Shown: positions 3,009 through 57,879, counted from the stretch's first letter. The stretch is 64,000 nt of DNA from Escherichia coli (GCF_003334305.1 NZ_QOWS01000002.1), one strand, 5' to 3'. Notes: a model not told the origin generated them from the letters alone. Numbers and translations are program-made.

Positions 3009-3626
3009 ATGGCACAGCTATATTTCTACTATTCCGCAATGAATGCGGGTAAGTCTACAGCATTGTTGCAATCTTCATACAATTACCAGGAACGCGGCAT
3101 GCGCACTGTCGTATATACGGCAGAAATTGATGATCGCTTTGGTGCCGGGAAAGTCAGTTCGCGTATAGGTTTGTCATCGCCTGCAAAATTATTTAACCAA
3201 AATTCATCATTATTTGATGAGATTCGTGCGGAACATGAACAGCAGGCAATTCATTGCGTACTGGTTGATGAATGCCAGTTTTTAACCAGACAACAAGTAT
3301 ATGAATTATCGGAGGTTGTCGATCAACTCGATATACCCGTACTTTGTTATGGTTTACGTACCGATTTTCGAGGTGAATTATTTATTGGCAGCCAATACTT
3401 ACTGGCATGGTCCGACAAACTGGTTGAATTAAAAACCATCTGTTTTTGTGGCCGTAAAGCAAGCATGGTGCTGCGTCTTGATCAAGCAGGCAGACCTTAT
3501 AACGAAGGTGAGCAGGTGGTAATTGGTGGTAATGAACGATACGTTTCTGTATGCCGTAAACACTATAAAGAGGCGTTACAAGTCGGCTCATTAACGGCTA
3601 TTCAGGAAAGGCATCGCCACGATTAA
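3009..3626 (+). CDS. tdk: Thymidine kinase
   Basis: 205 aa ORF with P-loop (NAGKST) and C-terminal zinc-binding Cys pairs; matches Tdk. Confidence 0.95.
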
Positions 3627-19090: not shown

Positions 19091-19097
19091 GCAGAAA

Positions 19098-19127
19098 GTC
19101 AAAAGCCTCCGACCGGAGGCTTTTGAC
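19098..19127. terminator. Bidirectional rho-independent terminator between tonB and yciA
   Basis: Perfect 13 bp stem gtcaaaagcctcc / ggaggcttttgac with gacc loop; A-run and T-run give U-tracts on either strand. Confidence 0.85.
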
Positions 19128-19129
19128 TA

Positions 19130-48573: not shown

Positions 48574-48841
48574 AATACTCTCTCCTGAATTTATGATTCA
48601 CGGAAGTAAGCTCTCTATAACTATAATAGCTAAGAATAAGCCTGGTGAAATTATTCCGTGAAATCTGCTCGCGCGCAGGGTTATATCACGCAGGTGATAA
48701 TGACTTCCTGTTATATCGCTGATAATAATTTTATATCTTGAGAGTGTTAATAACAGGTAAATAGTCTTAATTATCAACCAGGAATCATCTTAGAGCGGAT
48801 GATTTGCCAAACTGCAAATCATCCGTAGAGAAGGGAAATGG

Positions 48842-55495: not shown

Positions 55496-56284
55496 TTATT
55501 TCAATTCGAGTTCGTTCATTGCAGCGATGCTGAAACCGCCGTCAACGTGGACCACTTCACCGGAGATACCGGCAGAGAGATCGGAGCACAGGAATGCCGC
55601 GGAGTTACCCACATCTTCAATAGTAACGGTACGGCGAATCGGGGTAACGGCTTCGCAATGAGCCAGCATTTTGCGGAAGTCTTTGATACCGGAGGCCGCC
55701 AGAGTACGGATCGGACCAGCAGAGATGGCGTTAACACGCACACCTTCCGGACCCATCGCGTTCGCCATATAGCGCACGTTCGCTTCCAGAGACGCTTTTG
55801 CCAGACCCATAACGTTGTAGTTCGGGATAGCGCGCTCAGCGCCAAGGTAGGAAAGGGTCAGCAGGGCAGAACCCGGATTCAGCATGGAGCGGCAAGCTTT
55901 TGCCATTGCAACGAAGCTGTAGGAGCTGATGTCGTGGGCAATTTTGAAGCCTTCACGGGTAACGGCGTTAACATAGTCACCATCCAGCTGATCGCCAGGT
56001 GCAAAACCAATAGAGTGTACGAAACCGTCAAATTTCGGCCAAACTTTCCCCAGTTCAGCGAACATGGTGTCGATGCTGGCATCTTCTGCAACATCGCACT
56101 GCAGAACGATGTCAGAACCCAATTGAGCGGCAAATTCTTCTACGCGGCCTTTCAGTTTGTCGTTCTGGTAGGTGAATGCCAGTTCAGCTCCTTCGCGGTG
56201 CATCGCCTGAGCGATACCGTAGGCGATGGATAGTTTGCTGGCAACACCGGTTACCAGAATGCGCTTACCGGAAAGAAAACCCAT
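55496..56284 (-). CDS. fabI: Enoyl-[acyl-carrier-protein] reductase (NADH)
   Basis: 262 aa [59 protein letters not shown]... Confidence 0.97.
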
Positions 56285-56439
56285 AGCTTTAATCCTTATT
56301 GTTGATGCTTGTTGTGCCTGAAAATCAGGCGATTCGTCGTTTTAGTAAACAGTACGAACAGATAAACGGTTATTATAATCAACCTGGCTGTGAGTAGCTA
56401 TAGTTGCCAGGTCCGACCGGAGCAGGCTGCGGCAGGGTG

Positions 56440-56670
56440 GGCGTTTTTCCCCTCACCCTAACCCTCTCCCCAGAGGGGCGAGGGGACCGTATTGTGCAAA
56501 TATTGTTACCCCAGCAACAAACAGGCTCATACAGCCCCTAACCCTTTCATGGCGATGGCTGGGACGGTTCAGACCTTGCCGAATATTCTCCAGCACCGTC
56601 TCCATGTTTTCACCACAACAGCTATTCGGCTCGGTCTGCCCCCTCGCTCTTTCAGGGAGAGGGTGACCGG
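56440..56670. repeat. Composite intergenic repeat: inverted C-rich/G-rich element pair plus a degenerate direct copy of the ycjD 3' end
   Basis: gaatattctccagcaccgtctcc occurs at about 56581 and again at about 56687 inside ycjD; cctcaccctaaccctctccccagaggggcgagggg (about 56450-56495) resembles the reverse complement of ggtcaccctctccctgaaagagcgaggggg at the ycjD 3' end (about 56633-56670). Confidence 0.6.
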
Positions 56671-57005
56671 CGGTTCAGTTCCTGCAGAATATTCTCCAGC
56701 ACCGTCTCCTCATTACAATCAATCTCGTTATTCCAGAAACGCAGCACGGTCCAGCCCTGCGACTCAAGCCAGCTAGTGCGCCTGGAATCATAGGCAACTG
56801 CTAAATCATGCTGCCCACCATCCAGCTCAACGACTACACGCGCCGAGCAGCAAGCAAAATCGAGAATGTAGCTCCCCACTGGATGTTGACGGCGAAATTT
56901 GAAATCACTAAAACGTCGGCTGCGAAGATATCGCCAGAGCTTTCGTTCCTGCAAAGTGAGATTGCGTCTTAAATCACGCGCATTTGATTTAATTTTATCT
57001 ATCAC
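56652..57005 (-). CDS. ycjD: DUF559 (Vsr-like endonuclease fold) protein YcjD
   Basis: 117 aa ORF with GTG start, MIDKIKSNARDLRRNLTLQERKLWRYLRSRRFSDFKFRRQHPVGSYILDFACC... Confidence 0.88.
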   Translation of the reverse strand: MIDKIKSNARDLRRNLTLQERKLWRYLRSRRFSDFKFRRQHPVGSYILDFACCSARVVVELDGGQHDLAVAYDSRRTSWLESQGWTVLRFWNNEIDCNEETVLENILQELNRRSPSP

Positions 57006-57046
57006 CTCATTCTGACAAGATTTAATCTTTTGTCAGAATGAGGTGA
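57002..57046. repeat. 17 bp perfect inverted repeat (candidate sap operon terminator; left arm covers the ycjD start codon)
   Basis: tcacctcattctgacaa - gatttaatctt - ttgtcagaatgaggtga, between the sapF stop and the ycjD start. Confidence 0.7.
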
Positions 57047-57072
57047 ATAATCTGGAAGGAGGATTCAGAAAA

Positions 57073-57879
57073 TTAGCGATCTTTACGCCACGCATCCGCC
57101 GTCAATGCCTCGCCAAAATGACCGGCAATCAGCCGTTTGGTGAGTTCATGCAGCGGCGATGCCAGCACATCCGCGGTGCTGCCTCGCTCGACAACCTCGC
57201 CCTGATGCATCACCAGCACCTGGTCGCTAATGTGCTTCATCATTCCGATATGCTGGGTAACATAAATATACGAAATGCCCTGTTTTTCCTGTAACTCCAG
57301 CATCAGATTAATCAACTGCGAACGCATCGACATATCCAGTGAAGCGAGGGCTTCATCGGCAATAATGACTTTTGGGCGCAATATCAGCGCGCGCGCCAGA
57401 CCCAGACGCTGTTTTTGTCCGGGTGCCAACATATGCGGATAGTAACTGACGTGATCCGGTAGCAGCCCAACCATACGCATCGTTTCAATAATCTGTTTGC
57501 GACGCTGTTCCGGTTCCAGGTCGGTGTTCAGGCGCAGTGGAAAATCCAGAATTTGCGAGATACGTTGACGGGGATTCAACGAGGTCGAAGGATCCTGAAA
57601 AATCATGCGAATACGCTGACTGCGGAAGGAATAATCGCCAAAATGCAGTGGATGATCGTCAATCAATAACTCGCCGCTGGTAGGCTCTATCATTCCCGCC
57701 AGCATTTTTGCCAGCGTGGATTTACCCGAACCATTCTCGCCAATAATCGCCAGTGTCTGGCCTTCACGTAGCGTAAAGCTCAAGGGTTTTACCGCTTCTA
57801 CGGTCTGACGACGAAACCAGCCGGTCCGGTAGCGGAACGTTTTACTTAAATTACGCACTTCAAGCAGCGTTTCGATCAT
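57073..57879 (-). CDS. sapF: Peptide/putrescine ABC transporter ATP-binding protein SapF
   Basis: 268 aa ORF, Walker A GENGSGKST; last gene of the sap cluster. Confidence 0.94.
   Translation of the reverse strand: MIETLLEVRNLSKTFRYRTGWFRRQTVEAVKPLSFTLREGQTLAIIGENGSGKSTLAKMLAGMIEPTSGELLIDDHPLHFGDYSFRSQRIRMIFQDPSTSLNPRQRISQILDFPLRLNTDLEPEQRRKQIIETMRMVGLLPDHVSYYPHMLAPGQKQRLGLARALILRPKVIIADEALASLDMSMRSQLINLMLELQEKQGISYIYVTQHIGMMKHISDQVLVMHQGEVVERGSTADVLASPLHELTKRLIAGHFGEALTADAWRKDR

Follow-up and report, generated by a model that had tools for sequence, protein, structure and literature searches.

A proposed sigma-70-type promoter embedded in the hairpin between sapF and ycjD of Escherichia coli

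What role does a long and perfect palindrome play in the short spacer between two genes that are read in the same direction? This question is raised by a 64,000-nucleotide stretch of Escherichia coli DNA (GCF_003334305.1, NZ_QOWS01000002.1), which is called the window here and whose positions are counted from its first letter. Three genes of the window, sapF (57073-57879), ycjD (56652-57005) and fabI (55496-56284), all lie on the minus strand, and the palindrome separates the first two. An earlier note on this DNA considered the palindrome well placed to terminate the sapABCDF transcript, able to hide the ycjD start on read-through transcripts, or usable as a protein-binding site. The analysis described here indicates that the spacer holds a promoter embedded in a hairpin and is not a plain terminator. 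Three elements were absent from the earlier note: a sigma-70 promoter in the arms, a doubtful GTG start next to an ancestral ATG, and the origin of the palindrome within a gene cassette. A composite model is proposed in which ycjD possesses its own promoter together with a fold-back shield against outside transcription, and we give this model a little less than an even chance.

The arms of the palindrome, TCACCTCATTCTGACAA (57002-57018) and TTGTCAGAATGAGGTGA (57030-57046; both in window letters), are complementary at 17/17 positions and enclose an 11-nt A+T-rich spacer, so that sequence and coordinates were described exactly in the earlier note. The sapF stop codon (57075-57073, minus strand) is separated from the palindrome by 26 nt, close to the distance of about 25 bp given before, and the annotated GTG start codon of ycjD (57005-57003) indeed lies inside the ycjD-proximal arm. 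No perfect hairpin of the window is longer. First-order Markov shuffles of the window never yielded 17-bp arms (0/300; mode 10, maximum 16, reached once), a smaller run contained one 16-bp outlier in 30 shuffles, and the analytic expectation of such a palindrome was calculated by us to be approximately 7e-5 per window. RNA folding predicted a strong structure for the minus strand, which is the sense strand of sapF and ycjD (-30.1 kcal/mol, z -5.75), as well as for the plus strand (-34.3 kcal/mol, z -5.53). An Rfam scan at a permissive threshold returned only generic matches to miRNA-precursor-like hairpins, with at most 25 bits against gathering scores of 70-100. The features of the locus are as follows.

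57030 to 57046, minus strand: sapF-proximal (5') arm, which reads TCACCTCATTCTGACAA and holds the -35-like hexamer CTGACA (57036-57031)
57019 to 57029, minus strand: A+T-rich spacer or loop of 11 nt, inverted together with inner stem bases in at least one natural E. coli genome
57002 to 57018, minus strand: ycjD-proximal (3') arm, TTGTCAGAATGAGGTGA, with the extended -10 element TGt-CAGAAT (57017-57009)
57008 to 57003, minus strand: 6-nt discriminator GAGGTG, which includes the annotated GTG; the predicted +1 is A57002
57000 to 57002, minus strand: site of the ancestral ATG start, which reads ATA in this K-12-type window
57051 to 57070, minus strand: small hairpin TCTGAA-N6-TTCCAGA (hp1), directly 3' of the sapF stop and degenerate here
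56652 to 57005, minus strand: ycjD as annotated, 117 aa, DUF559 protein with a PD-(D/E)XK Vsr-like nuclease fold
57012 to 57039, plus strand: mirror promoter-like site CTGACA-16-CAGAAT, which arises from the symmetry and would fire antisense into sapF
56433 to 57065, minus strand: ycjD cassette, delimited by comparison with eef-type E. coli (see below) and comprising the 3' part of hp1, the palindrome and ycjD, followed by a degenerate BoxC unit at the stop codon, the duplicate of a 3' fragment of ycjD and a BoxC/TMECO unit

A consensus scan placed the motif CTGACA-16-CAGAAT, preceded by TG and symmetric on both strands, exactly within the palindrome. On the ycjD strand, the -35 hexamer falls into the distal arm and TGt-CAGAAT into the proximal arm; with 9/12 consensus matches in addition to the TG, this arrangement fits the pattern of a sigma-70 extended -10 promoter. 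The same hexamers had already been assigned to this gene by Shimada et al. 2014 (PMC3946193), who gave 'CTGACA-16-CAGAAT' as the ycjD promoter and reported a peak of in vitro binding of the RpoD holoenzyme in the sapF-ycjD spacer by genomic SELEX (systematic evolution of ligands by exponential enrichment). With the usual distance of 7 nt from the -10 element, the predicted transcription start is A57002, 3 nt past the annotated GTG. The rows listed by Ettwiller 2016 and Yan 2018 include no entry for the sapF-ycjD region. RNA from the mirror promoter on the plus strand would begin near 57046 and run into sapF in antisense orientation. This promoter is followed by a strong AAGGAGG motif resembling a Shine-Dalgarno (SD) sequence (57056-57062, plus strand), with no canonical start codon at normal spacing, and PMC12817139 mentions public data on antisense transcription and translation near the 5' end of ycjD.

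Species-representative genomes were scanned for YcjD, which yielded 80 loci. The enterobacterial homologues (57-70% identity) share a leader of approximately 90 nt that can be aligned to the E. coli spacer, beginning just past the upstream stop codon, and consists, in this order, of hp1 (CTGAA-N6-TTCAG/TTCCAG), TTCTGAC... and TGnCAnnnT-N6-ATG. The leader was found in at least three chromosomal contexts. Apart from the position downstream of sapF, these are the following.

hemW-yggN context: Enterobacter, Leclercia, Lelliottia, Yokenella and others
Context of a divergent yggM-like gene and yggN: Phytobacter, Pseudocitrobacter
Divergent cysP-yfeX context: Kluyvera, K. spallanzanii
LysR-type gene upstream: Cedecea

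One locus titled Chryseobacterium sp. 18061 (L022) carries an Enterobacter-like hemW-ycjD-yggN arrangement, for which assembly contamination or mislabelling is the likely cause. The sapF gene ends differently in other genera. A 15-bp stem followed by CUUUUUC is present in Enterobacter roggenkampii, and further hairpins occur in Klebsiella pneumoniae and in a genome with an 'empty' sapF-fabI interval. None of these hairpins is related to the palindrome by sequence, so an ancestral sapF terminator is ruled out, and comparison of the flanks indicates that the palindrome arrived with the ycjD cassette rather than with sapF. A dispersed repeat of the REP/BIME, ERIC or BoxC type was ruled out as well. 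At BLAST sensitivity, the palindrome has a single location in each of 3,317-3,379 E. coli genomes, and the only other near-match of its motif in the window has 3 mismatches, which is the level expected by chance. No true plasmid copies were found; the plasmid matches were mislabelled chromosomes or BoxC copies only.

The promoter geometry is conserved among these homologues. In an alignment of 34 leaders (Escherichia, Enterobacter, Leclercia, Kluyvera, Phytobacter, Cedecea and others), the -10 element retains A2 and T6 in 33/34 sequences and varies at positions 3-5. TGn occurs in 27/34, and 21/34 have a -35 element with at least 4/6 matches at a distance of 16-17 nt. The gap between the -10 element and the ATG measures exactly 6 nt in 31 of the 34 leaders, none of which has an SD sequence at functional spacing. 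The TTCTGAC core is conserved as well, and the promoter motifs are kept whether the upstream gene is co-directional or divergent. Six homologues from Melainabacteria and cyanobacteria (L035, L046, L052, L054, L058 and L061) have TATAAT, TAAAAT or TAATAT exactly 6 nt before the ATG, which reads as a clear signature of a leaderless gene, and Xanthomonadaceae copies have ordinary AGGAGG leaders. Both the 6-nt discriminator of the enterobacterial leaders and the TATAAT-N6-ATG arrangement of the Melainabacteria recall leaderless genes whose -10 element immediately precedes the AUG, such as lambda cI transcribed from PRM and tetR of Tn1721. The ycjD locus differs from these in its weak -10 element (CAGAAT or CAGAGT), which leans on the TG extension, in a start that is predicted from sequence, and in the ATA that replaces the ATG in the allele of the window.

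This ATA casts doubt on the annotated start codon. At the position where the window has ATA (57002-57000), every relative has ATG, and within E. coli an ATG follows the GTG in most alleles, ATA being confined to the K-12-type allele. The segment is present in 3,379/5,426 complete E. coli genomes, and ATG-bearing alleles are found in most of the roughly 1,900-2,000 genomes among them that are not K-12-type.

K-12-type allele (this window): GAGGTG ATA GAT AAA ATT, 1420 genomes, identical over 72 nt
L085, the commonest other allele: GAGGTG ATG GAT AAA ATA, about 1,800 genomes, 19-bp arms and a 7-nt loop
CRE444-type allele: GTG ATG CAA, 114 genomes

The K-12-type open reading frame contains no in-frame ATG anywhere and the protein no other Met codon. 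The annotated GTG is therefore probably a fallback call after mutation of the ancestral ATG to ATA. Situated inside the stem and upstream of the predicted +1, this GTG is likely to be a poor start codon or none at all, and ycjD is probably translationally crippled in K-12-type strains. The encoded protein is a full-length DUF559 protein (PF04480, E 1.5e-49), a family with a Vsr-like PD-(D/E)XK fold (PMC1189080).

The palindrome is under selection for pairing, with compensatory changes. Across the 34 leaders, 71.6% of the cells at palindrome pairs are paired, compared with 39-49% when partners are slid against each other. Double changes occur in 30 cells versus 17.3 +/- 2.8 in shuffles (0/500), and compensatory types were observed at 7/17 pairs. 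The small hairpin hp1, which is conserved in all ycjD leaders, behaves similarly (81.5% of cells paired versus 18-58% with slid partners, with compensatory CG/UA and UA/GC pairs) and forms a terminator-like stem followed by TTTT in the relatives with hemW context. Pairing of the palindrome is retained across genera at 60-66% protein identity, and within E. coli intact arms were counted in more than 3,300 genomes. Retention also depends on the neighbouring gene. When each leader was folded from -52 to +3, 22/23 of those preceded by a co-directional gene (sapF or hemW) had z values of -2.43 or lower. The 11 leaders preceded by a divergent gene all gave values above -2.4, and none of them forms the long hairpin. 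In the hemW group, the stem closes with a CAT that pairs to the ATG, and the 3' arm ends at or includes the start codon. The contrast is not simply a clade effect, since the yggM-context copies are nested within the hemW clade of the protein tree. Hairpins that are kept only below co-directional genes are what one would expect of a structure whose target is RNA arriving from upstream.

These observations are combined in the following mechanism. At the level of DNA, the sapF-proximal arm would supply the -35 element (CTGACA) and the ycjD-proximal arm the extended -10 element (TGtCAGAAT). Transcription would begin 7 nt after the -10 element, at the A of the ancestral ATG, and would produce a leaderless mRNA that includes neither arm. 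Both arms would be present only on transcripts that enter from upstream, such as sapABCDF read-through RNA, and would there form a hairpin of -28 to -33 kcal/mol, closed at the start codon, that masks the only SD-like bases (GAGG). The hairpin would probably serve the sap mRNA as a 3' barrier or stabiliser as well. A nuclease-like gene would thus be expressed only from its own weak promoter and be shielded from outside transcription. The 3' arm covers the start as in other shields of this type: the annotated GTG is part of the arm, and the stem closes at the A of the ancestral ATG. The proposal of the earlier note that the ycjD start could be occluded on read-through transcripts gains support from comparative data, namely the start codon in the 3' arm, the compensatory changes and the retention below co-directional genes only; from these we infer occlusion.

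Similar arrangements are known from insertion sequences (IS). IS10/Tn10 and IS50 are reportedly protected from external promoters by fold-back inhibition of read-through transcripts (Davis, Simons and Kleckner are said to have described this in 1985). In these elements the promoter lies inside the inverted repeat, so that outside transcripts alone hold both arms and fold over the start. The ycjD arms differ in being much longer and perfect, the ycjD start has no SD sequence, and the position of its promoter relative to the arms is predicted. At the left end of IS200, a terminator hairpin counteracts impinging transcription and a second inverted repeat sequesters the tnpA start (PMC4513863). 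The ycjD cassette likewise has two successive inverted repeats at the 5' edge of a small, selfish-looking gene, of which hp1 is terminator-like in the hemW copies and the second lies over the translation start, and its own promoter is weak. In contrast to IS200, whose own mRNA holds the SD-sequestering hairpin, the predicted mRNA of ycjD begins 3' of the hairpin and lacks a leader. Furthermore, the ycjD cassette encodes no transposase, is present in one copy per genome and shows no recent mobility.

Several points weigh against this mechanism. The K-12 table of Kim et al. 2012 lists no transcription start at the predicted position, and those it assigns to ycjD, with 3-4 reads apiece, fall within sapF at a distance of 151-648 nt upstream. 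The SELEX data represent binding, reveal neither direction nor activity, and are compatible with the ycjD-sense site as well as with the mirror site on the plus strand. The -10 element matches only 2-4 of 6 consensus positions, and a simple promoter scan makes no call in Enterobacter. The context correlation amounts to about five independent genomic contexts, with Cedecea as an exception that is co-directional and yet has no hairpin. Without an SD sequence, read-through RNA might go untranslated even if no hairpin were present, so that a benefit of masking is hypothetical. The K-12 open reading frame has remained intact despite its predicted poor translation. Finally, the selection on the hairpin could concern the mRNA of the upstream gene alone.

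Could the palindrome then be a terminator? Intrinsic terminators are characterized by a G+C-rich stem, a loop of approximately 3-8 nt and a U-tract directly after the stem. The palindrome has a 17-bp stem with 7/17 (41%) G+C, an 11-nt loop and no U-tract, and the consensus scan for terminators made no call. The tail of the stem on the sapF-sense strand, UAGAUAAAAUUAAAUC / UAGAUAAA, contains two U residues in its first 8 nt, in line with the weak U-tract remarked on earlier. The Term-seq data of Adams et al. 2021, obtained in three growth conditions, contain neither a 3' end nor a Rho-termination region between positions 1,350,208 and 1,361,446 of MG1655, although low sap expression could mask a 3' end. 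The left bound of this stretch is the fabI terminator at 1,350,208, and window positions were converted to MG1655 by an offset of +1,294,755, which was checked on the yciT 3' end (window 48792, MG1655 1,343,547). This 3' end is instructive in itself. It lies 4 nt below the stem of a 12-bp perfect hairpin without a U-tract (48796-48825, downstream of yciT), and a U-tract-free hairpin can therefore yield a 3' end in the data of Adams et al. The palindrome is not a canonical terminator. With Rho-independent terminators and stabilising 3' hairpins of the REP type it shares a strong stem-loop soon after the stop codon and a retention tied to a co-directional upstream gene; it differs from them in the lack of a U-tract or mapped 3' end, in being single-copy, and in a sequence unrelated to REP, BIME and BoxC. 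Elsewhere in the window, a 14-bp perfect hairpin, AGTCAAAAGCCTCC-GACC-GGAGGCTTTTGACT (19097-19128), has A and T runs on its two sides and resembles an intrinsic terminator that works in both directions.

A function at the 3' end of the sap mRNA is suggested by those E. coli strains that lack ycjD. In the remaining genomes (approximately 38%), a 7.9-kb eefRABCD efflux island lies between sapF and fabI and replaces the 633-bp segment 56433-57065, a polymorphism that has been described (PMC12817139). Homology between the two haplotypes breaks at window positions 57066/57065 and 56433/56432 (comparison of L001 and L004). Just past the break, the eef-type genomes keep both arms around a new GC-rich loop, CACCTCATCCTGA-N13-TCAGGATGAGGT, and show a compensatory change of the pair U57037-A57011 to C-G. 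This hairpin (-33.2 kcal/mol) has a U-richer tail, is flagged by the terminator scan and forms the spacer between the convergent genes sapF and eefD. This retention makes some 3'-end role for the sap mRNA plausible, and the survival of the hairpin in the absence of ycjD argues that it also serves the 3' end of the sap transcript. The earlier terminator proposal is thus left with weak support: a U-tract, a scan call and a Term-seq end are all missing for the palindrome itself, and the arms and U-richer tail of the eef-type speak for it.

A stronger form of this idea regards the palindrome as little else than the hairpin at the 3' end of sapABCDF RNA, with a role in termination or as a barrier to 3' exonucleases; the promoter hexamers and the overlap with the ycjD start would be incidental. 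It would account for the short distance of a strong stem to the sapF stop, for the fact that this is the sole strong hairpin after sapF in E. coli while other genera each have their own hairpin there, for the retained arms, compensatory change and terminator-like tail of the eef-type, for the restriction to leaders with a co-directional upstream gene, and for the precedent of the yciT hairpin within the same window. The atypical stem and loop without U-tract or scan call, the absence of a nearby 3' end or Rho region, and the homology of the element, which is not ancestral to sapF, to leaders of ycjD homologues elsewhere all stand against it. It also leaves unexplained why A2, T6, TG and the fixed 6-nt spacing to the ATG are conserved where no co-directional gene lies upstream. 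We regard this explanation as unlikely.

The palindrome itself also occurs in variants. The arms measure 12 bp in Escherichia sp. E1V33, 14 bp in E69 and 17-19 bp in E. coli, and in E. coli EC07 (L088) the spacer and inner stem bases are inverted relative to L085 (AGAGATTAAATCT versus AGATTTAATCTCT), which from the sequences is a natural flip between the arms. Such variants would suit a structural relic without present function, a remnant of a cassette end or of recombination that was kept or perfected by quasi-palindrome correction through template switching. The stepwise growth of the arms, an intramolecular exchange between them in EC07, the position in a recombination hot spot where ycjD and eefRABCD alternate, and the presence in the cassette of BoxC-type repeats, which have been reported as associated with instability, would all be in accordance with a relic. 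Pairing with compensatory changes across genera at 60-66% protein identity, loss that is specific to contexts without a co-directional upstream gene, and arms intact in more than 3,300 E. coli genomes would not, and we consider a functionless relic improbable.

The perfect dyad over the -35 and -10 elements, next to a gene for a protein with a DNA-binding nuclease fold, might also suggest an operator for a dimeric regulator or for YcjD itself that overlaps the promoter. Against an operator, the half-sites are centred 28 bp from one another, the arms vary freely in sequence from one genus to the next with their complementarity retained, no second copy of the motif beyond chance exists in the window, and Kluyvera-type leaders have no dyad. 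An operator therefore seems very improbable. The protein-binding site considered in the earlier note found no support, given arms that drift while their pairing stays, the spacing of the half-sites and a spacer that is naturally invertible.

If the palindrome belongs to the ycjD cassette, where does the cassette come from? The stop codon of ycjD lies within TCACCCTCTCCCTGA, a degenerate BoxC unit (56640-56666), and a BoxC/TMECO unit, CCCCTCGCCCCTCTGGGGAGAGGGTTAGGGTGAGGGG, is located downstream of ycjD at 56449-56485 (minus strand). Between these two inverted units sits a duplicate of the 3' coding end of ycjD (ETVLENIxQxLNR), visible as a 39-nt direct repeat with 90% identity (56565-56603 versus 56671-56709), which suggests remnants of nested or tandem cassettes. 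The association of YcjD-like genes with BoxC/triplex-motif repeats extends over many phyla (loci L005-L084). Within 100 nt downstream of the gene, the 80 homologue loci have 24.9 BoxC-type motifs per kb (about 400-fold enriched), and within 100 nt upstream 8.7 per kb (about 145-fold enriched), compared with 0.06 per kb at distances of 1 kb or more. The flanks are inverted repeats of each other in 36/74 loci, with scores above every control, and form terminal inverted repeats next to the start and stop codons. In L063, for example, such repeats of 41 nt match at 40/41 positions and directly adjoin both codons. About half of the non-enterobacterial copies have terminal inverted repeats between their 5' and 3' flanks, and none were found in the enterobacterial copies.

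The TMECO/BoxC repeats were described by Holder et al. 2015 as intrastrand-triplex repeats with 23 copies in MG1655, for which no associated mobility function was found, and our literature searches returned no paper linking BoxC to DUF559. Possible signs of mobility of the cassette are its occurrence in at least three chromosomal contexts, its presence/absence polymorphism and the BoxC-type terminal inverted repeats in other phyla, yet it is single-copy. The palindrome was considered as a diverged BoxC hairpin. This was not supported, as in Cedecea a BoxC forms an entity of its own that precedes both hp1 and the promoter segment. Only the last ~10 nt before the ATG resemble GGGTGAGGGG, a weak resemblance that would connect the 3' arm (GAATGAGGTG-ATG) to the GGGTGAGGGG-ATG end of BoxC-type repeats. 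The cassette shares with the BoxC/TMECO family the repeats it contains, one at 56449-56485 and a degenerate one at the stop codon, and the flanking of YcjD-like genes across phyla, whereas the palindrome itself is not a BoxC unit. A tentative and still doubtful interpretation regards ycjD with its two 5' hairpins and BoxC flanks as the decaying resident copy of a cross-phylum family of miniature elements, in which a Vsr-like DUF559 nuclease gene is enclosed by BoxC/triplex-motif terminal inverted repeats. Orphan BoxC/TMECO repeats would then be solo or non-autonomous derivatives, and the palindrome would be a shield in the style of IS200 and IS10 combined with a leaderless promoter. Should this be true, orphan BoxC/TMECO repeats would relate to the YcjD-like gene as REP/REPIN sequences do to RAYT. 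The association of BoxC with DUF559 is a lead and not a demonstrated mechanism.

The YcjD-like protein thereby becomes a candidate enzyme for a long-known repeat family without a known mobility function. For E. coli itself, the GTG start of ycjD (b1289) is probably an annotation artefact of an ATG-to-ATA mutation specific to K-12-type strains, and the real gene is likely leaderless. The hairpin that is found only below co-directional genes provides a directly testable prediction. If the model is correct, an arrangement already known from insertion sequences, with the gene's own promoter inside an inverted repeat and outside transcripts folded shut, would here have a clear chromosomal example on a nuclease-like gene, having so far been documented mainly for insertion sequences.

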